Assembly (NCBI GenBank): GCA_017452165.1
Contig: JAFTMY010000035.1
Span: 1-49,273, forward strand
From: Clostridia bacterium
Lineage (GTDB): Bacteria; Bacillota; Clostridia; Christensenellales; UBA1242
DNA: 49,273 nucleotides
Direction of reading: 5' to 3'
The notes beneath the pieces were generated by a model, which saw nothing but the letters and a program-made list of their open reading frames with translations, had not been told where the DNA came from and searched no databases. Shown here piece by piece: positions 2,647 through 33,192 of the stretch. A program made the translations under genes and the position numbers. Each line of letters starts with the position of its first letter. Positions within the stretch are counted from its first letter, which is position 1.

Positions 2647-5592
2647 TTAAGAATTTTCATAAGGATTATAGTCAGGATTTGCAAAGGTGTTTTCTTTTTT
2701 AGGAGTCCAAATAATATGTTGTTCAAAGAAACTATCACCAGAATAGTTTTGTCCATGTTCTTTTATTCCATATTTTCCAAAATCAACAGGAACAAATAGG
2801 GTTAAAGACCTTCTATTTTTAGAACGAAGTTGTCCTGATAAATCATTAAAACCAATACCAACATTGATTTGTTTTAATGTTTTTGTAGGATTTTCTTTGT
2901 TGTATTCATCAGCAAATTTTTTAATTGCTTGCATAAATTTTTTATAAACATCGTGGTATTTATCGCTTGTAACTCTATCAGCAACTTGGAAACTATTAAC
3001 AATTCCGTATCTTTCATCTGGATTAATATAAAGGGTTGCTTTTGCGATAATATCATTACTAAGTTTATCTTTAACAATAACTGTTTGCATATTAGGGTGG
3101 ACGATACTTGCGTGAACAATACCATATCCCACGCCTTCAAGATGCGCACAGCAATTACAAAGTTTACCAAGTATTAAGTTTTTAGGGTCGTTTTTAGAAA
3201 CCCATTCAAAAGTAAATTGATTTTTAGACGACTCAACCAAGTTTGAAAGAGTATTTACTTGAAGTTTTGAAATTTCGTTTGAATATTCATCAATGGTTTT
3301 AAATGGTTCATCTACAACAGGAACTTCTAATATTTGGTCAGGTATATTATTTGCTTTTTTCTCTTCAAAAATGCTAACAGCATTGTCAAAACTAAATTGG
3401 TCAGAAAAGTATGGAGAAATTGTTTTTGCAATATCACGGGTTTCTTCAGTAATGTTGTCAAATTTATTTTCATTAAAATAATCTTTAAATTTTTGAACAG
3501 TCGCTTTAAGTTGTCTTTGAGAACCACGATTATTTGTGTTTGTTTTTTGAACTTCTTCAAAATTATTATAACATTTTGCAATAAAGCCATGATTGTTTCT
3601 TTCTTCAGCATTTAATTCATCAAAGTTTTCCATAAAAAAGTCGGTAAATTCTTTATTGAAACCTTTTGTTTCCATATGTAATCCAACACTTGAAAAAAGA
3701 CCAATACCACATTTTTTCTTATTAAATAAACCTCTTACAAACTCAACAGATTTTTGAGCATAGTCATAGGTTTTACCGTTTTCTTCAAATGGGGTAGATA
3801 CTCCACCAATGTTATAGATAAATTTGCAAAGACTATCTTTTTCAAATTTAACTCTTTTATTTAGTATTTTAAAGAAGGTAAAGTTATGATTTTTAATAAA
3901 GTTACTTGCTTCTTCATAAGGAAGAGTTGTTACAAAGTTGTTATAAAATTTGAGAACACTCTCGTTGTTTTGTTCTCTAAAAAGAGTTTCTCTATCTTCA
4001 AAGTGTGATGCTAAAAGAGACATATCAAGTGAAGTTTGTTGCATAGGTGCATATTCATCAAGTTCAATTCTTGAAAAAGCACAGCCATTTTCAAGTTCTT
4101 TAAAGTATGGATAAGAAATATCGTTAATTTTTTCGTATCTTTTCATAGAATTTGGAATTACGATTTTGTGAAAATCACAATCTATAAATGCATATTCACC
4201 GATATTTTCTAATGTGTTAGGCAAATTGATATTTCTAAGTTTTGTGCAATTAGAAAATGCTTTAGTTTCAATGTTTTTAAGACCTGAAGAAAATTCCACA
4301 TTTTCTAGTTCTGAACAATCACAAAATGCACTTTTTTTTATAGTTTCAACGCTTGATGGTATACTAATTTGACCAAGAGATTTGCATTCTTGGAAAGCAC
4401 TTTCGCCAATAACTTTAACACTATTTGGAATTTCTACATTTTCAAGTTTGTGGCAACCAATAAAAGCACTTTCGCCAATTTCAGTTACACCAAATGGGAT
4501 TGTAATAGTTTTTAGTTTTGCACAATCTCCAAATGCAGATTCATCAATAGTTTTAAGAGAGTTAGGTAAAGCAATAGTTTCAAGTCTATCACAAAGTGAA
4601 AAAGTATTCGCTTCAATATTATTAATTTTGCCGTTAATTTGAGCATTTTTAAGTCTTGGACAACTACTAAAAGCATATTGTTTAATTTCTTTAACAGTGC
4701 TTGGAATATTTAAGTTTTTAATGTATGTTTTTTCAAAAGCATTTTCACCAATAAACTCTAAACCTTCTTTTAAATCTAAGTTTGCTAAAAATGTGCAGTG
4801 AGAAAATGCGTGATCATCAATTATTTTTAGAGTGGTAGGGCAGTCAACAGTTGATAAAAATAGACAATTTGAAAAAGCATTTTTACCAATTCGCTCAACT
4901 CCTTCAGGAATAATAACTTTTTTAAGTGAAGAACATTGAGTAAATGCTGCATTATCAATAACTTTAAGTTTTTCAGGAAGTTTAATAGAAGAAAAATTAC
5001 AACCTGCAAGAGCATTTTCTGAAATAACTGATAAATTTTCAGGAAGTTTAATAGATTTTAAGTTAGAGCATTCACAAAATGCATTATTTTCTAATTTTGT
5101 AACATTTTCAGGAATTTCTATTTGAGTAAGCGCACGACAATTTTCAAATGCCTGAGCGCTGATTTTATCAATAGATTTTGGAAGTTTTACTTTTTTAAGT
5201 AAGATACAGCCTTGAAATGCTCCACTTCCCATATCTTTTACTGAATCAGGAATATTAACATTTACTACTGGGCATCTAGCAAAAGTATTTTCTCCAATTT
5301 TTTCAATGCCATCATCAAGAGTTATTTCTTTAAGAGACCTACAATTATAAAAAGCACTATCGCTGATTTCTTTAACAGATTTTGGTATATGAACTTTAGT
5401 TAAAAAATCGCAATGAGAAAAAGCGTGTTTACCAATGGCTTCAACACTCTCTGGAATTTCAACACTTTTAATATCTAAAATGCCTTTAAATGCATTATCA
5501 GCAATTGCTCTTACATTATTTGGTATAATAAGATTGCCGTTTTCAATATCATAGGCATCTATGCTATATAAAACACCATTATTAATAACCAT
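2647..5592 (-). CDS. P2: LRR + conserved family C-terminal domain protein (981 aa)
   Basis: Complete ORF. It has the N-cap MVINNGVLYSIDAYDIENGNLIIPNNV, then LRR units of the form IxIPxSVxxIGxxAFxxCxxL. C-domain motifs are HNFTFFK, NGKTYDYAQK, CYNNFEEVQKTNTNNRGSQRQLKAT, ISPYF, ILGKLCNCCAHLEGVGYGIVHASIVHP and AKATLYINP. It is the most divergent linker and C-domain of the set. Confidence 0.9.
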   Translation of the reverse strand: MVINNGVLYSIDAYDIENGNLIIPNNVRAIADNAFKGILDIKSVEIPESVEAIGKHAFSHCDFLTKVHIPKSVKEISDSAFYNCRSLKEITLDDGIEKIGENTFARCPVVNVNIPDSVKDMGSGAFQGCILLKKVKLPKSIDKISAQAFENCRALTQIEIPENVTKLENNAFCECSNLKSIKLPENLSVISENALAGCNFSSIKLPEKLKVIDNAAFTQCSSLKKVIIPEGVERIGKNAFSNCLFLSTVDCPTTLKIIDDHAFSHCTFLANLDLKEGLEFIGENAFEKTYIKNLNIPSTVKEIKQYAFSSCPRLKNAQINGKINNIEANTFSLCDRLETIALPNSLKTIDESAFGDCAKLKTITIPFGVTEIGESAFIGCHKLENVEIPNSVKVIGESAFQECKSLGQISIPSSVETIKKSAFCDCSELENVEFSSGLKNIETKAFSNCTKLRNINLPNTLENIGEYAFIDCDFHKIVIPNSMKRYEKINDISYPYFKELENGCAFSRIELDEYAPMQQTSLDMSLLASHFEDRETLFREQNNESVLKFYNNFVTTLPYEEASNFIKNHNFTFFKILNKRVKFEKDSLCKFIYNIGGVSTPFEENGKTYDYAQKSVEFVRGLFNKKKCGIGLFSSVGLHMETKGFNKEFTDFFMENFDELNAEERNNHGFIAKCYNNFEEVQKTNTNNRGSQRQLKATVQKFKDYFNENKFDNITEETRDIAKTISPYFSDQFSFDNAVSIFEEKKANNIPDQILEVPVVDEPFKTIDEYSNEISKLQVNTLSNLVESSKNQFTFEWVSKNDPKNLILGKLCNCCAHLEGVGYGIVHASIVHPNMQTVIVKDKLSNDIIAKATLYINPDERYGIVNSFQVADRVTSDKYHDVYKKFMQAIKKFADEYNKENPTKTLKQINVGIGFNDLSGQLRSKNRRSLTLFVPVDFGKYGIKEHGQNYSGDSFFEQHIIWTPKKENTFANPDYNPYENS

Positions 5593-5757: not shown

Positions 5758-8700
5758 TTATTCTTTTTCCCAAAGAGTGTATTGTTCTTCGTCGCTATCT
5801 CCTTGATAACCTTCGCCTGATTGTGTAAATTTTCCGTAGTCAATTGCCTCAAGAAGAGGCTCAGTTGGTTCATGATATTTAATAATTTCGTCTGTTAAGT
5901 CATTAAGATTCATACCCACAGAGATTTTTTTAAGTGGTTTATTAGGGTGTTGTTTATTATATTCTTCAGCAAATCTATTTATACCCAATATATATTTTTC
6001 ATATATTTCTTCAAAATAAACAGGATTAACACTATCGTTAATTTCAACATTATTAAATACACCATAGCCTTCATCAGGGTTAATGTAAAGGGTTGATTTT
6101 GCAATTATTTCATTGCCGTATTTAACAACTAAATTTTGAACATTAGGGTGGGTAATACTTGCGTGCATAATGCCTTCGCCAACGCCTTCAAGGTGGGCAC
6201 AACAAGAGCATAGTTTACCAAGTATATAGTTTTTAGGGTCATTTTTTTCAAGCCACTCAAAGTTAAACTGTTCAGTTGCAGTATCCACTAAATTTTCTAA
6301 TGTTTCAACTCTTAAGTTTTCAATTTCTTCACTATATTCATCAATATTTTCAAAAGGATTATTTTTTTCTTTTAAGTGGAAACCAAGAATACTACTAGGT
6401 GAATTTTTTTCTCTTCGTTCATCATCGATTTTAACTGCATAGTCAAATGTCATTTGGTCAGAAAAATAAGGTGAAATGGTATCTGAAATATGTTTATTTT
6501 CGTCAGTTATACCTAAGAACTTATTTTCAGCAAAATAATCTTTAAATTTTTGAATTGTAGGCTTAAGTTGTCTTTGAGAACCATGATTGTTTGTATTTGT
6601 CTTTTGAACTCTTTCAAATTCGTTGTAGCATCTAGCGAAAAATCCTGGGTTAGAAATATCTTCAAGCATAAGTTCATCGTAATTTTTCATAAAAAAGTCG
6701 GAAAAATCCTTCTTAAAACCATTATTTTGCATTTTTTCAGTCATATAATAAATGTCTGTAATATTCAAATGCCCTTGATTAAATTTTTGTAGTAAAAACC
6801 CACAAAGTTTTTGAGCATAGTCAACGGTCTTTCCATTTTTATCGATTATAGGTTTTTCTAAACCACCCATATTATATAAGAATTTATAAAATGCTGTATT
6901 TTCTGCAGGTGGATTTTCAGGGTCTAAGTTGAATTGTTTAAAAAATGTAAAGTTGTGTGAAGTTAAAAATTTTTCAATATCTTTTTGAGGTAATTCTCTT
7001 AAAAATGAATTATAAAATTTAGAGATAGATTCATTTTTTTGTTCTCTAATTAAAATGTCTTTATAATTCCAATTTTTAGATAAAAACGCTGGATTTATAT
7101 TTAAAGTTTCAAGAGGGATTGAATCTTTTGTTTCTTTAGATAAAAGTGAGAAGCCGTCATCAACTTTTCTAAAATATAATAAATTTTTATTTATGCTATT
7201 ATCAAAAAGTTCAATTGAATCTGGAACAAAAATTTCTTCAAGTGAAGAACAACCTGAAAAAGCATCTTTAACTTTTTTAATAGACTTAGGAAGTTTAACT
7301 TTTTTAAGTGAAGGGCAGAACTGAAAAGCAGAAGCATTTATATATTTAAGACCTTCATTAAAGTTTACTTCAACTAACTTTTCGCAGTTATAAAAAGCAT
7401 CAGTTCCAATAGTAATTAATGAATCAGGCAAAGTTATAGATTTAAGTGAAGTGCAGTTTGCAAAAGCACTAACTTTTATTTCTTGGAGATTTTTAGAAAA
7501 TTTAATATCAGTTAGTTTTTTACAACCAGTAAAGGCAGATTCTTCAATAAACTTAACACTATCAGGAATTTCAATAGATTTAAGGTTTACGCAGTGTTGA
7601 AAAGCATAATCATTAATTCTTTCTATACCATTTGGTAGTTTTATATCTTCAAGGTGAGCACAGCAATAAAAAGCATAAGTTCCAAGTCTTTTTACTGTAT
7701 CAGGGATTTCAATAGATTTTAAATTGTAGCAGTTTGCAAATGCTTGGTCAGAAATTTCAGTTAAATTTTTAGGAAGTTTGACCTTTTCAATTTTGTCATC
7801 ACAAAAGAAACAACTATCTCCAATTTTTTCAACACTATCAGGAATATCTACATATTTAAGAGCAAAGCAGTTAGAAAATGCCGAATGTCCTAAGGTTTTT
7901 GTTCCTTCTGGGATATTTATATTAATTAGGCTGTTACAATTACTAAATGCGTTGTCTTTTATTTCAGTTAAATTTTTAGGGAGTTCAATTTTTCTTAGTT
8001 TTTTGCAATCATTAAAAGTATTTTTCTCTATTGTTTTAACATTTTCAGGTATAATAATTTCTTCTAACTCCTTGCAACTAGCAAATGCATTTTCTCCAAT
8101 AGATTTTAAATTTTCAGGTAGTTTAATATATTTAATACCTGAACCATTAAAACCATTAGAAATAATAGATGTAACAGAACTAGGAATTTCTATGTGAGTA
8201 AGTGACTTACAGTTTTTAAACATTTCAACATTTATAAAAGGTATTCCTTCTGGAAGATTAATATATTTTAAATTTTCACAGTCAGAAAATACACTTCCAC
8301 CAATTGCAAGGTCAGGGTTATTTGGAAGAGAAACGCTTTCTAGTTCTTTGCAACCAGAAAAAGCAAAATGCTTAATATTTGTTACATTTTCAGGAATTGA
8401 GATATTTTTTAATTTAGAGCAACTAGAAAAAGCCCTTTGACCAATCATAGTAGCATTTTTTGGAAGATGAACTTCTGTAAGGGAAGAACAGTTTTCACAT
8501 AAATGACTAGGTATTTCTTCAATGTTATCAGGAAGGTTAAGAGATTGTAATGATTTGCAAGAATTAAAAGCACCTTCACCCATATAAATCATAGAACTAG
8601 GAATATTTATGCTTTTTAAGTTAGAGCATTCAGCAAAAGAATTTGTGCCAATACTTAAAATTCCGCTTGGTAAATCAATGCTTTCTAATTTTTTGCAGTT

Positions 8701-9108
8701 TGAAAAAGCATTTTTCTTAATTCTCTCTAATTTTTTAGGGAATTTAATTTCTTGAAGAGAAGTGCAGTCAGCAAATGTTTCTTCATAAATAGTGTCTAAC
8801 TTACTAGGAAGTTCAACATATTTAAGTCTTGAACAGCCTTCAAAAGCATTGTTACCAATATGCTCAACTTTTTTAGGAATTATAATTCGAGTTAAACTTG
8901 AGCAGTCTTTAAAAGCCTTATTACCAATAAATTCAAGTGATTTTGGTAATATAATTTCATTTACTTCTAACTCTTTACAAACACCAGGGTCAATTTCGAT
9001 AACACCTTCAGGAATATGAAGTATTGAAAAAATATTTCCATCACTGGTGTAATATTGTTCTAAGTCGTTAGGGTAAACTTCTTCAAGAACTCCTTGATTT
9101 ATTTTCAT
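5758..9108 (-). CDS. P3: LRR + conserved family C-terminal domain protein (1116 aa)
   Basis: Complete ORF with an AAGGAGA RBS. It has the N-cap MKINQGVLEEV, ~640 aa of LRRs, the linker FRKVDDGFSLLS and the full C-domain motif set (CYNEFERVQKTNTNNHGSQRQLKPT; ILGKLCSCCAHLEGVGEGIMHASITHP; AKSTLYINPDEGYGVFNNVEI). Confidence 0.92.
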   Translation of the reverse strand: MKINQGVLEEVYPNDLEQYYTSDGNIFSILHIPEGVIEIDPGVCKELEVNEIILPKSLEFIGNKAFKDCSSLTRIIIPKKVEHIGNNAFEGCSRLKYVELPSKLDTIYEETFADCTSLQEIKFPKKLERIKKNAFSNCKKLESIDLPSGILSIGTNSFAECSNLKSINIPSSMIYMGEGAFNSCKSLQSLNLPDNIEEIPSHLCENCSSLTEVHLPKNATMIGQRAFSSCSKLKNISIPENVTNIKHFAFSGCKELESVSLPNNPDLAIGGSVFSDCENLKYINLPEGIPFINVEMFKNCKSLTHIEIPSSVTSIISNGFNGSGIKYIKLPENLKSIGENAFASCKELEEIIIPENVKTIEKNTFNDCKKLRKIELPKNLTEIKDNAFSNCNSLININIPEGTKTLGHSAFSNCFALKYVDIPDSVEKIGDSCFFCDDKIEKVKLPKNLTEISDQAFANCYNLKSIEIPDTVKRLGTYAFYCCAHLEDIKLPNGIERINDYAFQHCVNLKSIEIPDSVKFIEESAFTGCKKLTDIKFSKNLQEIKVSAFANCTSLKSITLPDSLITIGTDAFYNCEKLVEVNFNEGLKYINASAFQFCPSLKKVKLPKSIKKVKDAFSGCSSLEEIFVPDSIELFDNSINKNLLYFRKVDDGFSLLSKETKDSIPLETLNINPAFLSKNWNYKDILIREQKNESISKFYNSFLRELPQKDIEKFLTSHNFTFFKQFNLDPENPPAENTAFYKFLYNMGGLEKPIIDKNGKTVDYAQKLCGFLLQKFNQGHLNITDIYYMTEKMQNNGFKKDFSDFFMKNYDELMLEDISNPGFFARCYNEFERVQKTNTNNHGSQRQLKPTIQKFKDYFAENKFLGITDENKHISDTISPYFSDQMTFDYAVKIDDERREKNSPSSILGFHLKEKNNPFENIDEYSEEIENLRVETLENLVDTATEQFNFEWLEKNDPKNYILGKLCSCCAHLEGVGEGIMHASITHPNVQNLVVKYGNEIIAKSTLYINPDEGYGVFNNVEINDSVNPVYFEEIYEKYILGINRFAEEYNKQHPNKPLKKISVGMNLNDLTDEIIKYHEPTEPLLEAIDYGKFTQSGEGYQGDSDEEQYTLWEKE

Positions 9109-9132: not shown

Positions 9133-11886
9133 TTATTTTTCAAAAGGATTTTCATTTTGAGTAGTGTTTTGATCTTTGCTAATATCCCAAAGTTTATATT
9201 GATGTCTTGCACTATCTCCAATGTGACCATCTCCACTTAGGTTAAATTTGCTATAATTTATAGCAGGGTAAAGAATAAAACTTTCATCATGGTGTTTTTG
9301 GATTTCTTCGGATAAGTCATTTAAGTGCATTCCAACAGTTAATATTTTGAGTGTTTTTTCAGGATTTTCTAAATTATATTGTTTAGCAAAATTATGAACA
9401 CCTAAGATGTATTTTTCATATATAGCAGGGTGTTGTGATTTTGGTGTATTTTCATAAATTTCAACATTATTAAAAACACCATAGCCATCATCAGGGTTGA
9501 TAAATAGTGTAGACTTAGCGATTATCTCACCATTATTATTTCTAATTACTAAATTTTGGATATTTGGGTGGATAATGCTTGCTCTCATAATACCTTGGCC
9601 ATTGCCTTCAATATGAGCACAGCAAGAGCAAAGTTTTCCTAATATATAATTTTCAGGGTCATTTTTTGCAAGCCAATCGTAAGTAAATTCATCTTTTGCA
9701 GATGATGACAAGTTCTTGGCAACTTCTATTTGACTATTTTCAATCATTTCACCAAGTTTATCAATTTTATCAAAGGGTTGTTCTTTTAAATGAAAACTTA
9801 AAATATGCGAAGGTGAGTTGCTATTTATTCTTTCTTCATTAATTTTTGTGGCTTTATCAAAAGTTTCTTGTGATGAGAAATATGGAGAGATTGCGTCAGC
9901 AATATCCCTTGTTTCTTCAGTTATATTAGAAAATTTGTTTTCATTAAAATATTCCACAAACTTTTTAAAAGTAGGTTTAAGTTGTCTTTGAGAGCCATGA
10001 TTGTTAGTGTTTGTTTTTTGAACTAAATTAAACTCATTATAACATCTTGAGAAAAATCCTGGTTTATAATATTCTTGCTCATGAATTTCATCAAAATATT
10101 TCATAAAATAGTCTGTAAATTCTTGATTAAATCCATTAACTTCCATATTTTCGCCAAAGTTTCCAAGTTCGGTAATATCTTCAAAATAACCTTGTTCAGT
10201 TTTTTGATTTAAAAACATACAAACTTTTTGTGCATAATTTATTGTTTTTCCGTTTTTATCAATAGTAGGAGGATTAAATGCACCTAAATTATAAAGTATT
10301 TTATAAAAATTTGAATCACGAGTTCTAATAACAGAATCATCATAATTAAATTGTTTAAAAAATGTAAAATTATGATTATCCATAAATTCTTGTGCTTTTT
10401 CTATATCTATTTTTGATAAGAACAAGTTATAAAATTCAGCGATTTTTTTATTATTTTGTTCTCTAAATAACTATTCTTTTCTATCCCAGTTACGAGATAA
10501 AAATGGAATATTAATTTTGATATAATCAGCAGGTAAAGAGTCAGATGTTCTTTCTTCAAGCATAGAAAAACCATCTTCATCTTTTCTAAAAAATTTTAAT
10601 TCTCCAATACCAAATTTAGGGAAAAATCCTACTAATTTATCATAAAATTTAATTGATTTAAGTGAGTCGCATTTATCAAATACTTGACTTCCAAGAGTGG
10701 ATAAAGCCTTTGGCATTACAATATTTTTTAACGACTCACAACCTTTAAAGCATTGCTCATTAATTGCAGTTATATTATCGGAGAGTTTAATATTTTCAAG
10801 AGCAGAACAATTAGAAAATGCTTGACCATAAATTTCTGTTACGCTATCAGGAATAGTGATAGATTTTAAACTTTTACAATTTGAAAAGGTAATAGGTCTA
10901 ATTTTTGTAATATTATTAGATAATTTAACATCTTCTAAGGCGTAGCAACAATTAAAAACAGATTCTCCAAGACTTGTAACAGTATCAGGTATTTCAATAC
11001 TTTTAAGTGATGTGCAAGCCCAAATTGCATCGTTTTCAATGGTTGTAAGATTTTTTGAAAGTTTAAGGTTAGTAAGTTTTTCGCATTTTCCAATAGATTC
11101 TTTTCCTAAATTTTTTACAGAGTCTGGAATAACTAAAGTATTAAGGGATCTGCACTCACAAAATGCTCCGTCAGGAATAATTTCTAATTTATTAGATAAT
11201 TTTATAAAGTCAAGTTTATGACAACTGTGAAAGCAGTTTTGACCAATTTTTTCAACACTATCAGGCATATTTACAGTTTTTAAGTTGTTACAACCATGAA
11301 AAACACTATCATCAATATATTTTAGTCCATTAGGTAAATTAATTTCTTCTAAATTTTTACAAGAAGAGAACGCATTATTTTTTATTTCTATTAAATTTTC
11401 TGGCATTGTTATAGACCTAAGTTGTCTACAAGAAGAAAACGCATTGCTACCAATTATTTTTACACTATTAGGAATTGTGAAGGTTTCAAGTGAACTACAA
11501 TCATAAAATGTATTTGATTCAATGCTAGTAATGCCATTAGGAAGATTAATACTTTTTAATGAAATACAATTCATAAATAAACTTTCATTTAAAATTTTAA
11601 CTGAGTCAGGAATAGTTATTTCAGTAAGTCTTCTACAACTGCAAAAAGCACCTTTTCCAATTTCATTGACAGAATTTGGAATATTAACTTCTTTTAACTC
11701 CGTGCAGTTCATAAAAGCATTTTCTCCGATAGATTTTAAAGTGCTCGGAAAAATAACTTTCTCGAGATTATCAAGTCTACGAAAAGCATAATCGTTAATT
11801 TTTATTATACCTTCAGGAATAGTAAAAGTTCCGTTTACTATATCTTCAGGAGATACACTAACTAATATTCCGTTTTCTATTTTCAT
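9133..11886 (-). pseudogene. P4: family member interrupted by one in-frame TAG (the ORF track shows it as 471-aa LRR and 430-aa C-domain pieces)
   Basis: ORFs 10471..11886 and 9133..10425 are in the same frame (both upper coordinates are 0 mod 3). Translation across the junction reads LSRNWDRKE-TAG-LFREQNNKKIAEFYNLFLSKIDIEK. This is collinear with the intact paralogs (e.g. LSKNWNYKDILIREQKNESISKFYNSF). The TAG lies at 10471-10473. The 'M' of the downstream ORF is a TTG Leu codon with no RBS. Confidence 0.8.
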
Positions 11887-17780: not shown

Positions 17781-20429
17781 TTATTGTTTTTCTTGCACAG
17801 TTTGTTGATTTTTTGTCGTTGTTTTTGGAGAATTTTCTTTAAGTTTATCTGATTTCCAAATTATACATTGTTCATCTTCACTATCTCCTGAATGAGCAAG
17901 TGCTCCTGTGCCATATTCAGCATAATTAATTGCTTTAAGGTTTGGTTTTAATTCGTATTCGTGATTAAAAATAAGTTCTCTGCTTAAATCATTTAGATTC
18001 ATACCAACATTAACTTGCATAAGTGGATTGTCGGGATTTTCTTTGTTATATTCTTCAATAAATCTTTTTACACCTAAGATATATTTTTCATAAATTTTTT
18101 GTTTTTTATCAGGCAAAATATCAGCAGAAACTTCAACATTACTAAAAACACCATAACCTTTTTCTTTGTTTAAATAGAGTGTTGATTTTGCTATAATTTC
18201 ACCATTACTATCTTTTATTACTAAGTTTTGAATAGTTGGGTGAACAATACTTGCATGCATAATTCCAAATCCCATTCCCTCTAAATGCGCACAGCAAGAG
18301 CAAAGTTTACCTAAGATAAAGTTTTTTGGATCATTTTTCTCTAGCCACTCAAAAGTAAATTCGTTATTTGCTGTTTTGATGAGTTCATCTAAAGACCTTG
18401 TTGCTGAGTTCCCAATTTTTCTTGCCATTTTATCAATGCTTGCAAATGGTAAGTTTTTTGTATCTTCTAAAGTCTCTTTTAAAGGAGCACTTAAAATGTT
18501 ATTAGGAACATTTTCATCTTTTCTAATTTTATCAATTCCGATTGCAAGATTAAAAGTTCCTTGGTCATTAAAATATGGAGATATTGTTCTAGCAATTTCC
18601 ATATTTTCTGAAGTAACATTGTTAAACATACTTGTTTCAAAATAGTCTTTAAATTTTTGAACAGTAGGTTTAAGTTGTCTTTGACTTCCACGATTGCTAG
18701 TGTTTGTCTTTTGGACATCTTCAAACTCATTGTAACACTTAGCAATAAAACCTTTTCTTTTATTTTCTTGAGCCATAAGTTCATCAAAGTTTGAAAGGAA
18801 AAAGTCAGTAAAATCTTTTTTAAAACCAGTGAGACTCATATATCTAAAACTATCACAAAGTCCATTAATAGTAATTTGTTTTTTATTTAGTCTTTCAAGT
18901 AAAAATTCAGAAACTTTTTGTGCATAATCGTATTTTTTGCCATTAATTTCTTTTGGTGTGCTTAAAGCACCAAGGTTAAAAAGCATTAAATAAAAAGGTG
19001 TTTTATTATCCATACTGTTTGATAAATCAAACTTTTTAAGAAATGTAAAGTTATGAGATTTTAAAAGATTTTCTGCTAAAACAGAGCCTCTATCCAGTAA
19101 AAAAGTATTGTATAAATCACAAATATTTGGATTTTTTTGTTCTTTTAAAATAGTATCTTTGTATTCCCAGTGATTAGATAAAAATGCTAAATCAACTTTA
19201 ATTTCATCAAGAGGAATAGAATCTTTATTTGCGTAAGAAGTGAGAGAAAATCCATCACCATCTAAGTTTTTATTAAAAAATTTAAGAGATGAGTTTCCAA
19301 CTCCTTTGATGGATTTTGCTTTAACAGGGAAGTTTACTTCTTCAAGGTTATAGCAACCTTCAAAAATTTCTTTTCCGATAATTGTTATTTTTTCAGGAAT
19401 ATTAATCGACCTAAGAGATGAACAACCTTCAAAAGCTCTACCTTTAATAGCAGATACATTTTCAGGTAATACGATTGTTTCAAGAGATGTGCAGTTTTTG
19501 AAACATCTAGGGAAGATATTTTTTAAACTTTTAGAAAGTTTTATATTTTTTAAACTAGTGCAATTTTCAAAAGTGCTTTCACTAAGAACTTCGAGGGAGT
19601 TTGGAAGTGAAATATCTGTTAAACTTGTGCAGTTTGCAAATGCTCTAAGGTTAATATAAATTAGTCCGTTTGAAAATTTAACCTTTGTAAGGTTTGAACA
19701 GTTTTCAAAAGAACTTGCTTCAATAGTTTTTAAAGATTTTGGAATACTAACGCTTGCAAGGTTTGAGCAGTCCATAAAAGAACCTTTGCCAAGTCTAACT
19801 AAGTTTTTTGGTAAATTAATTTTTTCTAAAGAATCACAACCTTTAAATGATTCATCTAAAATTCTAATAGTTTTATTTGGAAAGTGAATATTTTTTAGTG
19901 ATTTGCAATTACTAAACGCAAGTTCATCAATATCTTTTACATTTCGAGATATTTTAATATTTTGTAAATTAGTGCAATCACTAAACGCACTATGATGAAT
20001 TCTTCTAACTGATGGTGGAAGGTTAACTTTTTTTAAAGAAGAACAACCAGCAAATGCTGAATCATTAATATCTTTTAGTCCAAAAGGAATAGAAATACTT
20101 TCAAGAGAGGAGCAACCTTCAAAAGCAGAAAAGTTTATATTATTTACAGTGCTTGGGATATTTACATTTTTAAGGTTAGAGCAGTTTTTAAATAAACTAT
20201 GAGCAATGAGTTTTAAGTTTTTGGGGAGTGTGACACTTTCAAGATTTTGGCAGTCATAAAAAGCCCCAACTCCAATACTGTAAACAGAGTCTGGGATTAT
20301 AATTGTTTTTAAATTAGGAAGGTGTTTAAAAGTTCCTTCATTAATAACTGAGGCTTTGCTTGGAATCGTAAAAGTTCCGTTTATAATTTCTTCATCTCTA
20401 ACTCTTTGTAATCTATTTCCATCAAGCAT
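17781..20429 (-). CDS. P7: LRR + conserved family C-terminal domain protein (first gene of the five-gene operon)
   Basis: The ORF-track start at 20438 is a GTG that lies inside the AAGGTG RBS. The ATG at 20427-20429 sits 6 nt after that RBS and gives MLDGNRLQRVRDEEIINGTFTIP. C-domain motifs are CYNEFEDVQKTNTSNRGSQRQLKPT and ILGKLCSCCAHLEGMGFGIMHASIVHP. Confidence 0.88.
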   Translation of the reverse strand: MLDGNRLQRVRDEEIINGTFTIPSKASVINEGTFKHLPNLKTIIIPDSVYSIGVGAFYDCQNLESVTLPKNLKLIAHSLFKNCSNLKNVNIPSTVNNINFSAFEGCSSLESISIPFGLKDINDSAFAGCSSLKKVNLPPSVRRIHHSAFSDCTNLQNIKISRNVKDIDELAFSNCKSLKNIHFPNKTIRILDESFKGCDSLEKINLPKNLVRLGKGSFMDCSNLASVSIPKSLKTIEASSFENCSNLTKVKFSNGLIYINLRAFANCTSLTDISLPNSLEVLSESTFENCTSLKNIKLSKSLKNIFPRCFKNCTSLETIVLPENVSAIKGRAFEGCSSLRSINIPEKITIIGKEIFEGCYNLEEVNFPVKAKSIKGVGNSSLKFFNKNLDGDGFSLTSYANKDSIPLDEIKVDLAFLSNHWEYKDTILKEQKNPNICDLYNTFLLDRGSVLAENLLKSHNFTFLKKFDLSNSMDNKTPFYLMLFNLGALSTPKEINGKKYDYAQKVSEFLLERLNKKQITINGLCDSFRYMSLTGFKKDFTDFFLSNFDELMAQENKRKGFIAKCYNEFEDVQKTNTSNRGSQRQLKPTVQKFKDYFETSMFNNVTSENMEIARTISPYFNDQGTFNLAIGIDKIRKDENVPNNILSAPLKETLEDTKNLPFASIDKMARKIGNSATRSLDELIKTANNEFTFEWLEKNDPKNFILGKLCSCCAHLEGMGFGIMHASIVHPTIQNLVIKDSNGEIIAKSTLYLNKEKGYGVFSNVEVSADILPDKKQKIYEKYILGVKRFIEEYNKENPDNPLMQVNVGMNLNDLSRELIFNHEYELKPNLKAINYAEYGTGALAHSGDSEDEQCIIWKSDKLKENSPKTTTKNQQTVQEKQ

Positions 20430-20636: not shown

Positions 20637-20897
20637 TTATTCTTCATCATCACTTTCAGCATCACTCGCTTCTTTAAGTTGTTTAGATTTTTCGTTAAGA
20701 GCAACGAATCTTTCATAAACTTCTTTATATTTTTGTTCGTGAATTTTTATTCTTTGTAAAAGGTCTTCATCATTAGGATTGTTAGCATATTCTTGCTTTA
20801 AAACAGCAGTTTCTGCTTGAAGATTGTCAAAAATCATAGATAACTCTTCAAGTTCATCAAGTGTTTTTATAAATTCATATTTAATAAGATCGCTCAT
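20637..20897 (-). CDS. small acidic coiled-coil-like protein (86 aa), overlapping the 3' end of P8
   Basis: The ATG at 20895-20897 is preceded by AGGAGA at a spacing of 8 nt. The first 17 nt overlap the P8 tail (P8 stop at 20881-20883). The sequence is helical and E/K/Q-rich and ends SDAESDDEE. A terminator follows directly. Confidence 0.6.
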   Translation of the reverse strand: MSDLIKYEFIKTLDELEELSMIFDNLQAETAVLKQEYANNPNDEDLLQRIKIHEQKYKEVYERFVALNEKSKQLKEASDAESDDEE

Positions 20898-23800
20898 TTT
20901 CTTCTTCTCCTATATCTAAAATTGTGAATTGAGATTCATCACTATCTCCATCATGACCATATTCTTGTGGACAATACTTTGAGTAGTTTACTGCATGGAG
21001 TAAGTCTTCTGCTCTTTTGTTGTGTTTTTCAATTTGGTTGGTTAAGTCGTTTAAGTGCATACCTACATTAATTTTTCTAATTGGGGAATCTGGATGTTGT
21101 CTGTTATATTCATCAACAAATGCTTTAGTTCCAAGCAAATATTTTTGATAAATTTTTTGCTTATCTTCTTCATAGACATCAATACTAACTTCAACATTAT
21201 TAAATACACCATAGCCTTTCTTTGGGTTAATGTAGAGTGTTGATTTTGCAACAATTTTGTCATTTTCATCACGAATAACTAGAGTTTGAATATTAGGGTG
21301 GGTAATGCTTGCACGCATAATTCCATATCCAGCACCATGAAGGTGAGCACAACAAGAGCAAAGTTTTCCAAGAATAAAGTTATCAGGGTCATTTTTCTCA
21401 AGCCAGTCAAAAGTGAATTGATTTGATGCTGAGTTTAAGTTTTCAAATGTTTCACTCTGATTATTATATATTTTTTCTGCGTAATTATCAATTAAAATAA
21501 ATGGGTCTTCGAGAGTTTTTTCAGTTAAATGCATTCCTAAGATATTTTCAGGTGTGCCTTTTAACTTTCTTTCTTTTTCAATTGAAACAGCAGTATCAAA
21601 AGAACTTTGTTCTTTAAAGTAAGGTGAAATTGCATCAGCAATTCCTTGAGTTTCTTCGGTTAAACCATAAAATTTCTTATCTGCAAAATATTCTTTAAAT
21701 TTTTCAACAGTAGGTTTAAGTTGTCTTTGACTTCCACGATTACTTGTGTTAGTTTTTTGGACTTCTTCAAACTCATTGTAGCATCTAACAATAAAGTCAG
21801 TTTTATATTTTTCTGCTTCCATTAGTGCGTCATAGTTTTTGATAAAGAACTCAGTAAATTCTTTATTGAAGCCTTTATTTTCCATATTTTTAAAAATTTG
21901 AGTAAATCTTTCTATGCAGACATCATTTTTTTCAAGTTTAAGTTTAATAAAACCAGTGATTTTTTGTGCATAGTCAATAGTTTTTCCATTTTCTTCCACA
22001 GGTTTTTCGAAGCAACCAAAGTTATATAGTGCTTTGTAAAAATCATATTTTTCGTTAAATCCATCTTTAACATTTAATTGTTTAAAGAAAGTAAAGTTAT
22101 GTGATTTTAAGAAATTATCAATATTCTCTTGTGGTAAATCAAGTAAAAATGTGTTATAAAAATCACAAACCTTAGGATTTAATTGTTCTTTTAAAAGAGA
22201 ATCTTTATAATCCCAACCCTTTGTTAAAAAGGCAGGGTCAAGTTTTAAATTATCCAATGAAATAGAATTTTCTTGTTTTTCATGAGAGAGTTTAAAGCCG
22301 TCATCAGTTTTAGTATAGAATTTAAATTCTCCAACATCTTTTGCAGAAATAACACTCTTTGGAATAGAGATAGATTCAAGCATATTACATTGTAAAAATG
22401 CATTTTTACCGATATAAGAAACACTTTCAGGTATTTTAACATTTGTTAAATTTTCACATCTTTCAAATGCACATGCACCTATAATATTTACACCATTTTC
22501 AATTTCAACATTTGTAAGATTTAAGCAATGTTTAAAAGAGTTATTTCCAATTTTTAAAACTCTGCTAGGTATTGTAACATTTTTTAAATTTTTACAAGAT
22601 TCAAAAGTTGATTCTTCAATAGTTGTTAGTTCCTTAGGGAGTTTAACAGTTTCAAGAGAATAGCAGTTTTTAAATGCACGTTGCTTAATTGTTTTTAAAT
22701 TATCAGGAAGCACAGCATTTTTAAGTGATTTGCAATTTTCAAACGCACTTTCATCAATGAGGTTTAAATTATCTTGAAACTCAACATTTGTAAGAGAGAT
22801 GCAATCTTCAAACGCACTCGCTTTAATTTGCTCTAAATTTTTAGGAAGTTTAATACGATTTAAACTTGTGCAAGAGTCAAATGCTCTTGTTTCAATATAA
22901 GTTACATTGTCGGAAATATTTATATTTTCAAGAGATTTACAATCTCTAAAAGCGTGTTCACCAATATATGAAGCATTTAAAATATTTACATCTTTTAGAC
23001 TATAACATTTATAAAATGCACTATCTGGAATATTTTTTAAATTCTTTGGTGTTTCAATAGATTTTAAAGAAGTGCAATAAGTGAAAGCATTTGATCCAAG
23101 TCGCTTAAGGGATTCAGGAAGGTGTATACTTTTTAAATTATCACATCTTTCAAAGGATTTTTTTCCAATATATTCAACAGAATTAGGAATATTAATTCTT
23201 TTTAAACTAGAACATATGGCAAAGGCGTTATCATCAATTGATTTAAGTGAACTAGGAAGTTCAACTTTTTTAAGTGAGTAACAACTATCAAAAGTATTTG
23301 CTTCGATTTTTTCTATACCTTCAGGGAGTTTAATAGAAGCAAGTGAGTCACAATTTTGAAAAGCATTTTCTTTAATAATTTTTACATTTGATGGAATTTT
23401 GATATGTCTTAAGTGATTACATTTTGTAAAGGCATAACTATCAATCTTTTTTAGTGATTCAGGTAACAAAATATGTTTTAAATTATAGCAATTTTGAAAG
23501 GTTGATTTTTTTATTTGTTTAATACCCTCAGGAATTTTGAGAGATGTAAGATTAGCGCAACCTTCAAATGCACTATCACCGATGTATGAAACAGTTTCAG
23601 GAATTTTTAAATTTTTAAGTTCATAGCATGCATTAAAAGCATTTTCTCCAATATGTGTAATTTTATCTGGTAAAATAATATTTTTAATTTTACCACAAAA
23701 ACTAAAAGATTTGTTACCAATATGAGTAACACTACTTGGAATAGAAACTTCTTCAAGATTTATGCAAGCCTCAAAAGCACTATCAGGTATTTCTTTAACA

Positions 23801-24973: not shown

Positions 24974-25807
24974 ATGAAAAAAACAGTTGTTGCTATTTGT
25001 TATGATTTTGATAATACGCTGTCAGTTAGTGATATGCAAAGTTTTTCTTTTATTCCTAACCTTGGTATGTCAGTTGGAGACTTTTGGAGTTATGTAAATA
25101 CCTATGCTAAAAATAACAAGATGGACGGAATACTTAGTTATATGTATTTTATGATTCAATTTTGTAAAGAAAAGGGAATAAAACTTACAAAAGAATATTT
25201 AAATTCGCTTGGAAAAGATATTGAATATTTTAAAGGTGTTACAACTTGGTTTGATAGAATTAATGCTTATGGTAATGAAAAAAATATAGAAGTTGAACAT
25301 TATATTATAACATCAGGTAATAGAGAAATTATTGAAGGAAGTGAGATTTTTGACAAGTGCAAAGAGGTTTTTGGTTGTGAGTATTTATATGGTGAAGATG
25401 GAGAGGCGATTTGGCCAAAACACATAGTAAACTATACTCAAAAAACTCAGTTTTTATTTAGAATTTGCAAAGGTGCTTATGATATTACTGATGAGAAAAC
25501 AGTTAACCAAAGAATAAAAAAACGCCATGTGGAATTTAGAAATATGATATATATGGGTGATGGTCTTACAGATGTTCCGTGCCTAACACTTATAAAAGAA
25601 AAGGGTGGAAATTCTATTTCAATTTATAAGCCAGAAACTAAAGAAGTGAGCGAAAGACTTATAAAAGAAAATAGAGTAAATTTTGCATGTGAAGGGGATT
25701 TTAGTGAAAATTCACAGGTTGAAAATCTTGTAAAACTTATTATCGACTCGGTATATTATCGTGAAAAACTTATTAAAAAAGAACAACAACTTAAAAAATT
25801 TAATTAA
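24974..25807 (+). CDS. HAD-superfamily hydrolase
   Basis: It has the motif I DxDxT (ICYDFDNTL) at the N-terminus and the motif IV GDGxxD (YMGDGLTDVP). An AAGAGG RBS precedes it and its own terminator follows. Confidence 0.75.
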   Translation: MKKTVVAICYDFDNTLSVSDMQSFSFIPNLGMSVGDFWSYVNTYAKNNKMDGILSYMYFMIQFCKEKGIKLTKEYLNSLGKDIEYFKGVTTWFDRINAYGNEKNIEVEHYIITSGNREIIEGSEIFDKCKEVFGCEYLYGEDGEAIWPKHIVNYTQKTQFLFRICKGAYDITDEKTVNQRIKKRHVEFRNMIYMGDGLTDVPCLTLIKEKGGNSISIYKPETKEVSERLIKENRVNFACEGDFSENSQVENLVKLIIDSVYYREKLIKKEQQLKKFN

Positions 25808-25904
25808 TAATTTAAATTATATAAAAATAACAATAATTTTTAAAAAATGAAAGTAAAATTATAAAAAATAATACTATTTAATGTTATAATAATAAAACAA
25901 AAAT

Positions 25905-25943
25905 ACACCACTTAGTTAAGTATAAAATTAAGTGGTGTTTTGT
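25905..25943 (+). terminator. rho-independent terminator after the HAD gene
   Basis: The 10-bp stem ACACCACTTA (25905-25914) pairs with TAAGTGGTGT (25929-25938), followed by TTTGTT. Confidence 0.6.
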
Positions 25944-26042
25944 TATGTAAAAAAAATTATTCTTATTACTAAATATGATTGCAAATTTATAATATTTTTA
26001 TAACTATTGGAAATAGAAAAAAATATTATTTTTAATTTAATA

Positions 26043-26071
26043 TTGACTTGATTAATGAAATATTGTAATAT
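26043..26071 (+). promoter_or_regulatory. sigma-A-type promoter of the Nudix-to-kinase operon (TTGACT-17-TAATAT)
   Basis: TTGACT lies at 26043-26048, followed by a 17-nt spacer and TAATAT at 26066-26071. It sits ~55 nt upstream of the 26125 start. Confidence 0.5.
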
Positions 26072-26124
26072 TATGTAAATGTAGTTTATTATATAAAATA
26101 TAATAAAGGTTTTTGGAGGATAAT

Positions 26125-26607
26125 ATGATTTCATTTAATGTGGGAACTTCTAAGTTTAATTATAGAGTTGCTGGTATTTTTATTGATGAAAAAAATAAAA
26201 GATTTTTAACAAATACTGCAAAAAATATTGATTTTGTAGTTCTCCCAGGTGGTAGAGTTGAGATTGGTGAAAGTTCTATTGAATCACTTAAAAGAGAAAT
26301 GGTTGAAGAACTTGGCGCTAATATTTCAATAGTATCTCTTAAAGCAATTATTGAAAACTTTTTTAACTTTGACGGTTATGATTATCACGAACTTCAATAT
26401 GTGTATGTTGCAAAATTTGAAGATGAGTCTATTCAAAATCATACAGGCGAATTTATTGGTATTGAAGCAAAGGATTACTATGAATGGTTTAGTTTTGAAG
26501 ACCTTGATAAAATAAACTATAAACCAATTATGCTTAAAAGTGCAATTAAAGAAGCACTTAGTGGTGATTTAACTTTTAGACATATTATTCATAAAGGTAA
26601 TGGTTAA
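26125..26607 (+). CDS. Nudix hydrolase
   Basis: It carries the Nudix box GGRVEIGESSIESLKREMVEELG (GX5EX7REUXEEXGU). The ORF-track start at 26113 is a TTG inside the GGAGG RBS. The ATG at 26125 follows GGAGGA by 4 nt. Confidence 0.85.
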   Translation: MISFNVGTSKFNYRVAGIFIDEKNKRFLTNTAKNIDFVVLPGGRVEIGESSIESLKREMVEELGANISIVSLKAIIENFFNFDGYDYHELQYVYVAKFEDESIQNHTGEFIGIEAKDYYEWFSFEDLDKINYKPIMLKSAIKEALSGDLTFRHIIHKGNG

Positions 26608-26634
26608 TTTAGAAATTTGTTTTAGCGAGGGAGT

Positions 26635-27972
26635 ATGATTTTTAAAATTTTAACAATAATAATTGTTTCATTTTATTTGTTTATAACAATTAGATATCTT
26701 AATAGACTTGCTGTTTTTGTTAAAAACTATAAAAAGGTCAAAAAATTGGGAAATGTTGAACTTGAAAAAGAAACACTTTTTATTATTCCAATGTATAAAG
26801 AAAAGAAAATGGCAAGAGATACATTTAATTTCTTTTTTAATATTGCAAGTCAAAATGAAAATGTAAAGGTTGCATTTGTTTGCACTGCAAAAGAAGATGA
26901 CGGCAAAAATGAGACAACTTATGATATTTTATGCGATGAAAAAGCAAAGTCAAAAAGTGAAAGTATGTTTGTCTATAAATATCCAAAAACTACTGGAATT
27001 ATGGCACATCAGGTAAATTATGGTGTGAAAAAATACTCAGAAGATACAAAAAATACTGATTTTTGGGTTGCAATTTATAACTGCGATTCAAGACTTGATA
27101 AAATATCACTTAATGAAATTTTTTATAGTATAAATAACGCAAAAGTGCAGACAGTTTTTCAACAATATAGTTATTATCATATACCAGGTGCAAGATTTAA
27201 GTCTATTCCACTAAGTAGTGCAGTTTGGCAAACAAGGTGGAGTGTATTTAAGGAAAATGCAATGGCTAGAAATAGGTGTTTATATAGAAGAAAAATTAAA
27301 AATTTTAATACTTTTTATGCACTTTTTGAACCATTTTCTTACTGCATTGGTCATGGAATTATAATAAATGCAGAAACCTTTATAAAAGTTGGTGGAATGC
27401 CTGAAGATTCTATTAACGAAGATACTTTTATGGGGTATATTATTTGTTCAGAAGGGCTTGAAATAGAGCCACTATACTCAATGGAAAAAGCAGAGTCTGT
27501 CAGTAGCACAAAAACTTTAATTAGACAGCAATCATCTTGGTTTAATGGGCCTGTTAGAAGTTTAGAGTATTATAAGCAATATTGCAGAGATAATGACTGC
27601 ACATTTAAAAGACCAATTTGCAAGGAAGAAAATAAAAAAACTGCTAAAATTAGAGCGTTTAAGAGTTTTGATTATGCGCTTGCTTGGATGTTTAGTCCAG
27701 TTATCATGCTTGTGATTTTGCCAATATGTTCAATACTTGGCTATGGACTTTTTGGAATACTTATAACACTTTTAACTGCTGAAATTTATCTATATTTTGT
27801 AAATTTAATGATGTTTTTAGCACTTAGAAAACATGGAATTAAAGTTTTAATGCCATCACTTATTTTTGATATATTATTTTATTTTTGCCACGGTCTTAGC
27901 ACTTTTATTTGGCTTGGTAAAAATATTACAGGAAAAAATAGAATTGATAATAAATACAAAACGGAGAGATAA
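26635..27972 (+). CDS. membrane-bound family-2 glycosyltransferase (processive-synthase-like)
   Basis: There is an N-terminal TM helix and several C-terminal TM helices. The sequence has IIPMYKE (GT2 IIPxYNE-like), NCDSRLD (DxD-like), INEDTFMGY (ED motif) and RQQSSWFNG in the position of QxxRW, with Arg replaced by Ser. Confidence 0.6.
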   Translation: MIFKILTIIIVSFYLFITIRYLNRLAVFVKNYKKVKKLGNVELEKETLFIIPMYKEKKMARDTFNFFFNIASQNENVKVAFVCTAKEDDGKNETTYDILCDEKAKSKSESMFVYKYPKTTGIMAHQVNYGVKKYSEDTKNTDFWVAIYNCDSRLDKISLNEIFYSINNAKVQTVFQQYSYYHIPGARFKSIPLSSAVWQTRWSVFKENAMARNRCLYRRKIKNFNTFYALFEPFSYCIGHGIIINAETFIKVGGMPEDSINEDTFMGYIICSEGLEIEPLYSMEKAESVSSTKTLIRQQSSWFNGPVRSLEYYKQYCRDNDCTFKRPICKEENKKTAKIRAFKSFDYALAWMFSPVIMLVILPICSILGYGLFGILITLLTAEIYLYFVNLMMFLALRKHGIKVLMPSLIFDILFYFCHGLSTFIWLGKNITGKNRIDNKYKTER

Positions 27973-27974
27973 CA

Positions 27975-28685
27975 ATGAAAGTTTGTTTAGTAACAGGTAT
28001 TACTGGAACACTCGGAAGTGAGTTAACTGAAACATTAAAATCAAATGATTATTTTGTTATCGGATTATCTCGCAAAATTTGGGTAAATGCTGACGCTTGT
28101 ATAACTTGTGATTTTACGAATCTTAGCACTAATGATTTAAAAGAAAGTATCAATAATGTTATAAGTAATTTAAAGGAAATTAATCAAATAGATTTTGTTC
28201 ACTGTGCAGGATATTATGAAAAGGAAAGGAAATTTGACAGTGAATTTAACGAGAGTCTTTGTGAGAAAACTTTTAGTATAAATGTGTTTTCTTTTTATAA
28301 GATTGTGAACATTTTAACTGAAATTTGTGAAAAATATAAGGTGAAAAGTTCAGTTGTTGCAGTTTCTTCTAATTTAACAATAAAGAAAAACACTTTAACT
28401 GCTCCATATATTTCAAGTAAAATTGCACTTGAGGGTATGGTTCAATCATTTGCTCAGACATACGGCTCACTTGATATGCGTTTTAATTGTGTTTGTCCAG
28501 GTATGTTTGCTAGTAATATGAACGAATACAATGTGCCAGAGCAGTTTATAAATAACACACCACTTAAAAGACTTGGAAAAGTAGATGATATTATTGATTC
28601 GATAATGTTTTTATTATCAGATAAATCAAATTGCATAACAGCAAATAAACTCGTGGTTGACGGAGGAGGAAGCAATGGATATTAA
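27975..28685 (+). CDS. short-chain dehydrogenase/reductase (SDR) family oxidoreductase
   Basis: It has the N-terminal TGITGTLG (TGxxGxxG) motif and the catalytic YISSKIALEG (YxxxK) motif preceded by VAVSSN. The start lies 2 nt after the GT2 stop. Confidence 0.8.
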   Translation: MKVCLVTGITGTLGSELTETLKSNDYFVIGLSRKIWVNADACITCDFTNLSTNDLKESINNVISNLKEINQIDFVHCAGYYEKERKFDSEFNESLCEKTFSINVFSFYKIVNILTEICEKYKVKSSVVAVSSNLTIKKNTLTAPYISSKIALEGMVQSFAQTYGSLDMRFNCVCPGMFASNMNEYNVPEQFINNTPLKRLGKVDDIIDSIMFLLSDKSNCITANKLVVDGGGSNGY

Positions 28686-31696: not shown

Positions 31697-31698
31697 TT

Positions 31699-32952: not shown

Positions 32953-32957
32953 AATAT

Positions 32958-33168: not shown

Positions 33169-33192
33169 TATAAATGGCGAGGTGGGGGAATT

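Follow-up and report, generated by a model that had tools for sequence, protein, structure and literature searches.

A conserved C-x-C-C-x-H motif in the predicted GNAT-like C-terminal domain of a leucine-rich repeat protein family from uncultured gut Firmicutes

The IpaH, SspH and SlrP effectors combine an N-terminal leucine-rich repeat (LRR) array for recognition with a constant C-terminal E3 ligase domain (NEL) that depends on an essential cysteine; the NEL domain is all-helical and carries a CxD catalytic motif, and Gram-negative pathogens deliver these effectors by type III secretion. Acetyltransferase cores combined with a Cys/His zinc module are found in the MYST and Eco1/ESCO enzymes, where the zinc fingers display classically spaced ligands (C2HC or C2H2) and the coenzyme A (CoA)-binding loop is kept; the active-site cysteine of Esa1 has reportedly been proposed as an acetyl carrier. 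The arginyl-tRNA-protein transferase ATE1, like the L/F-transferase (LFTR) and FemX, has a GNAT fold and works without the CoA loop. The cysteines of its conserved cluster (CxxC and an adjacent CC pair), long thought to be catalytic, proved to be iron-sulfur (Fe-S) ligands, and the cluster binds Fe-S or Zn (PMC9884297). Here we analyzed a stretch of 49,273 nucleotides from a Clostridia bacterium of the UBA1242 lineage (contig JAFTMY010000035.1; the whole stretch is termed the window), whose minus strand harbors eleven paralogous genes, P1–P11, encoding N-terminal LRRs of the BspA type and a C-terminal domain with a C-x-C-C-x-H motif.

Judged by its predicted fold, this C-terminal domain represents an unnamed, previously undescribed two-part family that combines a known fold class with an unusual site. 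That the motif is a functional site is well supported, because it is conserved far beyond the window and because the predicted GNAT-like fold places it between the helices α1 and α2, and on this model the loop is probably the working site of a new enzyme family. Its chemistry may be that of a metal center or of a catalytic one. The family resembles the IpaH-type effectors in its domain order, but its conserved cysteines lie in a predicted α/β GNAT-like fold, its LRRs are of the BspA/LRR_5 type and its bearers are gut commensals of Gram-positive lineage; P3 yielded no NEL match in Pfam. In contrast to the window motif with its predicted position in the α1–α2 loop, the cluster of the eukaryotic ATE1 resides in a separate N-terminal domain. 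Neither ATE1, LFTR and FemX, which also show no sequence similarity to the domain, nor the MYST and Eco1 enzymes were found among the best 50 fold matches of the C-terminal domain.

Conservation within and beyond the window

The exemplar protein P3 (1116 residues; 5758–9108, minus strand) comprises a BspA-type LRR region, a linker, a helical subdomain and a putative GNAT-like subdomain. The LRR region (residues ~1–640; 7189–9108, minus strand) contains six stretches of Pfam LRR_5 and an LRR_8 match, and the LRR_5 similarity (PF13306, E=9e-183) is confined to this N-terminal part. The helical subdomain (residues 702–944; 6277–7005, minus strand) carries the sequence blocks HNFTFFK, NGK..DYAQK, GF.K.F..FF and TNT.N.GSQRQLKPT, and is followed by the GNAT-like subdomain (residues 945–1116; 5761–6276, minus strand), which was delineated from the topology and the Foldseek matches of a model of the P4 domain. 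The motif residues C967, C969, C970 and H972 are encoded at 6193–6210 on the minus strand, with the Cys970 codon at 6199–6201. In the ten copies, the LRR part is between 144 and 771 residues long with 34–44% identity between paralogs, and the C-terminal region is of fixed length (~415–440 residues) with 46–60% identity.

In eight longer or locus-encoded family members that were scanned, LRR_5 was again N-terminal and no other domain was found ahead of the C-terminal domain. A crude Kyte–Doolittle hydrophobicity scan detected an N-terminal or internal membrane-type segment in none of 241 full-length members. Thus, the surface-adhesin reading of BspA-type proteins does not fit here, and the members of the family are probably cytoplasmic. 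They share the N-terminal repeat type of the BspA-type LRR surface proteins (PF13306), but differ from these by the lack of any signal-like or membrane-like segment and by the additional C-terminal domain present in all of them. P3 and the C-terminal domain of P4 matched none of the PADLOC models of anti-phage defence proteins at E≤1, PHROGs gave no match for the domain, and no small immunity-like open reading frames (ORFs) lie between the copies of the window.

The sequence GKLC[SN]CC[AS]H occurs once per copy in all ten minus-strand ORFs with a complete C-terminal domain, and a six-frame scan of the window recovered C.CC.H at these ten sites only. This agrees with a first-pass annotation of the window, which had reported the motif in all ten complete copies; the exact sites lie inside the approximate ranges it had given, within about 10 nucleotides. 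Taken alone, invariance among the ten paralogs is weak evidence, because 90 of the 401 ungapped C-domain columns (22%) are invariant anyway. The hexapeptide holds all three invariant cysteines and one of the two invariant histidines of the ten-copy alignment, and it is this clustering within six residues, together with the persistence in 363 homologs, that sets the motif above chance. The sequence blocks that the same annotation had described as shared by all ten copies turned out to be less uniform: four of the eleven patterns match every copy, three match nine of ten and four match seven of ten. For the truncated eleventh copy, P1, it had counted only the first three blocks, where the minus-strand translation reveals five in variant form (HNFSMFK, NGKIVNYAQK, GFNKNFTDFF, CYNNFDEVQKTNTNNHGKQRQLKAT and IAPYF).

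Using an LRR-free C-terminal fragment of P4 as query, we retrieved 88 proteins with identities down to 29%, most of which likewise carry LRR_5. An exhaustive profile search returned 1083 cluster representatives at E<1e-3 and 462 at E<1e-30, and a second homolog search with a profile of the GNAT-like part at E≤1 gave fragments of the same family only. The family is large, as public metagenomes contain over 1000 clusters of it at 50% identity, and its annotation does not go beyond "leucine-rich repeat protein". A scan of one genome per species identified 78 loci, all in uncultured, mostly gut-derived genomes labelled as Clostridia (including Christensenella and Candidatus Onthoplasma), Bacilli or "Tenericutes". 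The LRR family is confined to uncultured gut Firmicutes; many of these, among Christensenellales with Candidatus Onthoplasma and among RF39-like Bacilli, bear the label of a reduced-genome lineage. Onthoplasma is a member of the family UBA1242, in which most genomes measure less than 1 Mb (PMC12306168). Should the source genome be of similarly small size, the copies of the LRR family, at least eleven, would make up a few per cent of it.

Several copies per genome are usual in the family. Furthermore, Bacilli-labelled gut genomes (loci L052–L079) display a conserved syntenic pair, a protein of ~1200–1300 residues followed by one of ~960–1010 residues, both with intact motifs, as exemplified by L074 (1355–4954 and 4967–7969). 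Many copies or a conserved pair represent a heavy investment for bacteria stripped of most metabolism. Two further genes (~262 and ~240 residues; no Pfam match) recur beside family genes in 16 and 18 Bacilli loci, respectively; because they are coded on the opposite strand, their recurrence probably reflects synteny among related species.

The alignment of 363 homologs allowed us to compare the four motif residues, which in P4 numbering are C266, C268, C269 and H271. The first cysteine is present in 351 sequences (96.7%), the second in 352 (97.0%) and the histidine in 341 (93.9%), and the third cysteine (C269; C970 in P3) in all 363, without a single replacement by Ala, Ser or Val. Every other cysteine or histidine of the domain is conserved to at most 60%, and a four-ligand site must therefore draw all its ligands from the hexapeptide or from Asp/Glu residues. 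Variant motifs include TSSCAH, CSSCAH, CSGCGH, VSCCAH, IQKGCAH and CxCCA[N/E/D/T/F]. The C-A-H triplet is thus retained after loss of the first two cysteines, with TSSCAH and IQKGCAH keeping the third cysteine and the histidine alone, and sequences with T, N, E, D, Q, S or F in place of the histidine retain the complete set of three cysteines. As the first cysteine, the second cysteine and the histidine have each been lost in several lineages and the third cysteine never, the four residues appear not to be equivalent, with the third cysteine as the constrained one. An apparent coupling of the loss of the first two cysteines to a D370R exchange was discarded, since it is confined to one clade of 5–7 sequences and hence does not provide independent evidence. 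The first-pass suggestion of a Zn/Fe site or a Cys-His center is accordingly strengthened as far as a functional site is concerned, by the conservation beyond the window and the predicted loop position, but not in its even treatment of the four residues.

Predicted fold of the C-terminal domain

An AlphaFold2 model of the P4 C-terminal fragment, calculated from 30 aligned homologs, reached a predicted local distance difference test (pLDDT) value of 84.7 and a predicted template modelling (pTM) score of 0.73. Residues 1–245 of the model are all-helical, and remained so when modelled alone (pLDDT 87.4). This helical subdomain contains the near-invariant residues G48, F132 and G144 and gave no fold match in a Foldseek search of the PDB (all E>1). 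The following residues 248–414 display the DSSP order β1-α1-[Cys loop]-α2-β2-β3-β4-α3-β5-α4-β6, which corresponds to the GNAT topology, with pLDDT values of at least 90 in the core. The residues 248–252, 289–295, 301–310, 315–323, 361–365 and 409–414 form the strands β1 to β6, and the residues 257–265, 277–285, 329–353 and 372–378 the helices α1 to α4, respectively. The first-pass annotation had expected two strands and then a helix behind the motif; the helix is borne out by the model, spanning 25 residues, but it is preceded by three strands.

The best 50 Foldseek matches in the PDB were all GNAT acetyltransferases with a probability of 1.00, although weak, with E-values of ~1e-3, target-normalized template modelling (TM) scores of 0.40–0.64 and root-mean-square deviations of 5–7 Å; named examples are 3lod, GCN5/PCAF, SpeG, RimL and PseH. 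Matches with short alignments in the viral structure library BFVD were mostly GNATs as well. The structure prediction and the Foldseek and profile searches, which had been proposed together with the first description of the motif, yielded a GNAT topology with weak GNAT matches, but no match to a sequence family.

In the model, the Cys motif (residues 266–271) and the adjoining G274-x-G276-x-G278 form the loop between α1, which extends to residue 265, and α2, which starts at residue 277. In solved GNAT structures, it is this loop that borders the acceptor site. The Cys loop is the lowest-confidence stretch within a core otherwise predicted at a pLDDT of at least 90, which would fit a loop that becomes ordered on ligand binding. 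Further near-invariant residues (K304, T306, N310, N319, E322, G365, N369, D404 and Q409) map to the strands β3 and β6 and to the ends of β4 and β5, and thus, in the predicted fold, on the elements framing the GNAT cleft.

The CoA pyrophosphate loop Q/RxxGxG/A (motif A), expected between β4 and α3, is absent. In an alignment of 212 sequences, the corresponding columns 324–329 are variable (N/S, N/E/D, N/D/K, I/V, S/K/P and E/D), and glycine is not among their most frequent residues. The C-terminal region matched no family in Pfam (E≤10) or NCBIfam, including GNAT families such as Acetyltransf_1. Profiles compared with PDB sequences gave LRR matches or nothing, and the profile of the subdomain gave no GNAT; tblastn and pattern scans of phages, plasmids and IMG/VR yielded no match. 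The sole recurring weak match, DUF6933, was rejected, as it appeared in 8 of 28 members with a best E of 3.5e-4, below the cutoff of that family, and was absent from PcfJ proteins.

Because motif A is absent and the sequence methods gave no connection between the domain and GNATs, we describe it as a divergent GNAT-like fold, as predicted, that is not placed in any acetyltransferase family. With the GNAT superfamily it shares the predicted order of strands and helices and the position of the conserved residues on cleft-forming elements. It differs from the superfamily by the lack of sequence-profile similarity and of the Q/RxxGxG/A loop, by the Cys3His and GxGxG insertion in the α1–α2 loop, and by an obligatory helical subdomain of ~245 residues ahead of it and the fusion to a BspA-type LRR array.

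Candidate chemistries of the C-x-C-C-x-H site

We tentatively read the motif as a metal- or cofactor-binding loop of the Cys3-His type with the third cysteine as its key ligand, an assignment that we slightly favor over a thiol nucleophile. Here, a compact loop with Cys3-His ligands would hold Zn2+ or an Fe-S cluster, possibly a [2Fe-2S] cluster whose two Fe atoms would be bound by the CxC part and the CxH part, respectively, and the third cysteine would be the indispensable ligand. The loop would be situated on the acceptor side of the β4/β5 cleft, where it would organize the active site or directly form part of it. The variable BspA-type LRR array would bind the target, probably a protein, and the constant C-terminal module would act on the bound target in the cytoplasm. 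The data themselves show the motif, the graded conservation of its residues, the predicted fold and loop position, and the lack of motif A and of hydrophobic signal-like or membrane-like segments. We infer metal binding, enzymatic activity and the role of the LRRs as a targeting module, and the model of LRRs that target and a C-terminal module that acts is drawn from the architecture alone.

Clusters of several cysteines carry a general prior for metal binding. Several of the residues that replace the histidine (N, E, D and Q) are other possible ligands, and the three cysteines are kept in these sequences. ATE1, in which conserved cysteines of a GNAT-fold transferase turned out to bind a cluster, may serve as a precedent by analogy.

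Several points weigh against a metal loop. A hexapeptide that supplies all four ligands, two of them as neighboring cysteines, would be sterically unusual for mononuclear Zn, and some of the histidine replacements (T and F) are poor metal ligands. At least seven apparently separate losses of the first or second cysteine and several losses of the histidine stand against zero losses of the third cysteine, and the TSSCAH and IQKGCAH variants would fit a function centered on the third cysteine better than a symmetric four-ligand site. In addition, the fold assignment is one prediction on a 30-sequence alignment with marginal Foldseek values, and no sequence method ties the domain to GNATs.

A thiol catalytic center, which we regard as possible but rather doubtful, would place the third cysteine (C269 in P4, C970 in P3) as the nucleophile of a ping-pong transfer in which an acyl, aminoacyl or similar group is carried as a thioester, or alternatively as the cysteine of a hydrolase or transferase. 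The histidine at the +2 position would be the usual general base, and the flanking cysteines would play auxiliary roles such as those of resolving or relay thiols. The amino-terminus of α2 and the Gly-rich loop might lower the pKa of the thiol or bind a donor phosphate. Such a center would suit the complete retention of the third cysteine (363 of 363), set against losses of the first cysteine, the second cysteine and the histidine in 12, 11 and 22 sequences, respectively, as well as the C-A-H triplet kept in lineages without both other cysteines. It is also consistent with a loop at the GNAT acceptor site, as suggested by the model and general knowledge of GNATs, and with the loss of the CoA P-loop, given which the donor or mechanism must be non-canonical if the protein is an enzyme. 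However, two further cysteines conserved at ~97% beside a nucleophile would be unusual, and the replacement of the histidine in ~6% of the homologs with the cysteine triad intact is hard to square with an essential Cys-His dyad. Moreover, neither sequence nor fold revealed a likeness to Cys-dependent enzyme families.

It is unlikely, in our estimate, that the domain is a non-enzymatic pseudo-GNAT, i.e., a binding or scaffolding module with neither cofactor nor catalysis, whose cysteines are structural and serve packing or a redox-sensitive disulfide/thiol switch. The absence of motif A and the lack of sequence relationship to active GNATs would agree with such a role, many expanded LRR families are pure binders, and the paralogs include degenerate or broken members (the stop codon of P4, the truncated P1 and the TSSCAH variants). 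However, a cysteine retained in 363 of 363 sequences at ~30% overall identity, without Ala, Ser or Val, exceeds the usual demand of packing. The ~25 near-invariant polar residues (N, Q, K, T, E and D) around the cleft strands resemble an active site, and stable disulfides would be improbable in the cytoplasm of a strict anaerobe.

Least probable of the alternatives, and compatible with either chemistry, is a divergent version of the PcfJ-like domain (PF14284), known from Firmicutes plasmids and Herelleviridae phages, which is of similar size and likewise consists of a helical and then an α/β part, the latter containing an invariant cysteine in a G...L..C context. The invariant H-C of its EG..L.HCV sequence would then correspond to the second and third cysteine of the window motif, with one shared Cys-based function. 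The longest BFVD alignments (360–430 columns, covering both subdomains) were obtained with uncharacterised phage proteins, the best being A0A7G9A3X2 (E=2e-10, 368 columns), and several others are named PcfJ-like. By eye, G-x-x-L-x-H-C-V can be aligned with G-K-L-C-S-C-C-A, with the downstream I..R and T.E/T.Y strands offset by one 5-residue indel. PcfJ differs, however, in having H-C rather than C-x-C-C-x-H and no LRRs, and no sequence or profile relation could be detected: the Pfam PcfJ model matched no family member even at E≤10, hhalign gave probabilities below 1% in three set-ups with a PcfJ alignment built from 7 sequences (pCF10 and six phages), and a profile–profile Smith–Waterman comparison was outscored in 88 of 300 rounds of column shuffling. 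Foldseek matches named PcfJ-like had E-values of 6e-3 to 4e-2 and query-normalized TM scores of 0.15–0.21 (target-normalized 0.08–0.40), tblastn against phages, plasmids and IMG/VR found nothing, and the PDB holds no PcfJ structure. As the hhalign and shuffle tests failed, PcfJ homology was rejected as a demonstrated relationship and is kept as a lead only.

A few observations were made on the PcfJ proteins themselves. On pCF10 (L001, 15874–17984), the gene immediately ahead of pcfJ carries the annotation of a Cas9 inhibitor of the AcrIIA9 family, and pcfJ lies within a block of small genes, which suggests an anti-defence neighborhood for PcfJ-domain proteins on this plasmid. The phage contig MT840058 (L087, 2961–4352) contains a 463-residue ORF downstream of its PcfJ-domain gene with the sequence 'SIHPCDFLEMS…WSSCHCLEGGGY' and a C-terminal CxxC run; it showed no Pfam match and no profile similarity to the window family. 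An ORF on MT840058 with the string "SCHCLEGGGY", similar to the motif by eye, was dismissed at an hhalign probability of 0.2%.

The candidate site, composed of one invariant cysteine, two near-invariant cysteines and one near-invariant histidine, makes the family experimentally approachable. If the site were catalytic, the GNAT fold would gain a new chemistry or donor type, and the intracellular BspA-type LRR proteins their first functional handle. The farthest-reaching version, in which the family forms a new class of cytoplasmic, LRR-guided enzymes that modify proteins or nucleic acids by means of a CoA-independent GNAT fold and an unprecedented C-x-C-C-x-H metal/thiol center, seems to us quite improbable as a whole. 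If true, it would describe LRR-guided enzymes analogous to IpaH-type effectors or LRR immune sensors, whose common chemistry would serve for many targets among phage, partner-cell or host proteins.

Layout of the window and neighboring genes

The window has a G+C content of 27%, and its sequence sits inside a 69-kb scaffold of a metagenome assembly in ENA. The eleven paralogous genes together occupy ~35 kb of the 49-kb window. P1–P8 form an unbroken head-to-tail array from the window start to 24639, and P9, P10 and P11 are located at 36059–39295, 41032–44073 and 46665 to the window end, respectively.

The C-terminal domains, all on the minus strand, are encoded as follows. That of P2 spans 2650–3936 with the motif at 3142–3168 (CNCCAH), that of P3, described above, has the full GKLC[SN]CC[AS]H string at 6193–6219, that of P4, the sequence modelled, 9136–10422 (motif 9613–9639), that of P5 11919–13205 (12396–12422, CNCCAH), and that of P6 14399–15655 (14852–14878, CSCCSH). 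They are followed by P7 at 17784–19103 (18285–18311), P8 at 20884–22149 (21343–21369), P9 at 36062–37330 (36533–36559), P10 at 41035–42348 (41533–41559) and P11 at 46668–47960 (47166–47192).

Three of the copies deserve comment. P1 (1–1850, minus strand) is the eleventh copy, its C-terminal domain being cut by the end of the window and contig after the [IL][SA]PYF block and upstream of the Cys motif. Its gene call on the source scaffold (L086, 18598–20445) comprises 615 residues and ends 17 nucleotides before the scaffold end, identifying it as an edge-truncated copy. P4 is a single gene split by one in-frame TAG at 10471–10473 (minus strand), between the ORFs 9133–10425 and 10471–11886; the two halves share the frame, and the sequence around the stop reads …NWDRKE*LFREQNNKK…. 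This TAG could be a recent pseudogene lesion, a sequencing error or a read-through site. For P11, the frame stays open to the window end (48570–49273, minus strand) with a family-typical amino-terminus (…INGCLTRVESSDLVDGKFIFPPEV…), and the true protein is therefore ~870 residues long, compared with the 634 residues listed from an internal Met.

A compact cluster on the plus strand (24974–34905) separates the paralog arrays. It includes a 277-residue protein, a GT2-type membrane glycosyltransferase, a radical-SAM/SPASM enzyme, a 683-residue protein with a PHP domain, an FtsK/SpoIIIE-like ATPase and several further ORFs. Judged by eye, NUDIX-like and SDR-like proteins and a small membrane protein are probably encoded here as well. 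The presence of the radical-SAM/SPASM enzyme suggests peptide or sugar modification. Two further genes lie among the paralogs, at 34991–35812 (minus strand) and 39463–40869 (plus strand). They encode a DUF11-repeat protein and a protein that starts with a signal region of the camelysin/TasA type (Peptidase_M73 N-terminus), and both products, unlike the LRR family, look like genuinely exported or surface proteins.

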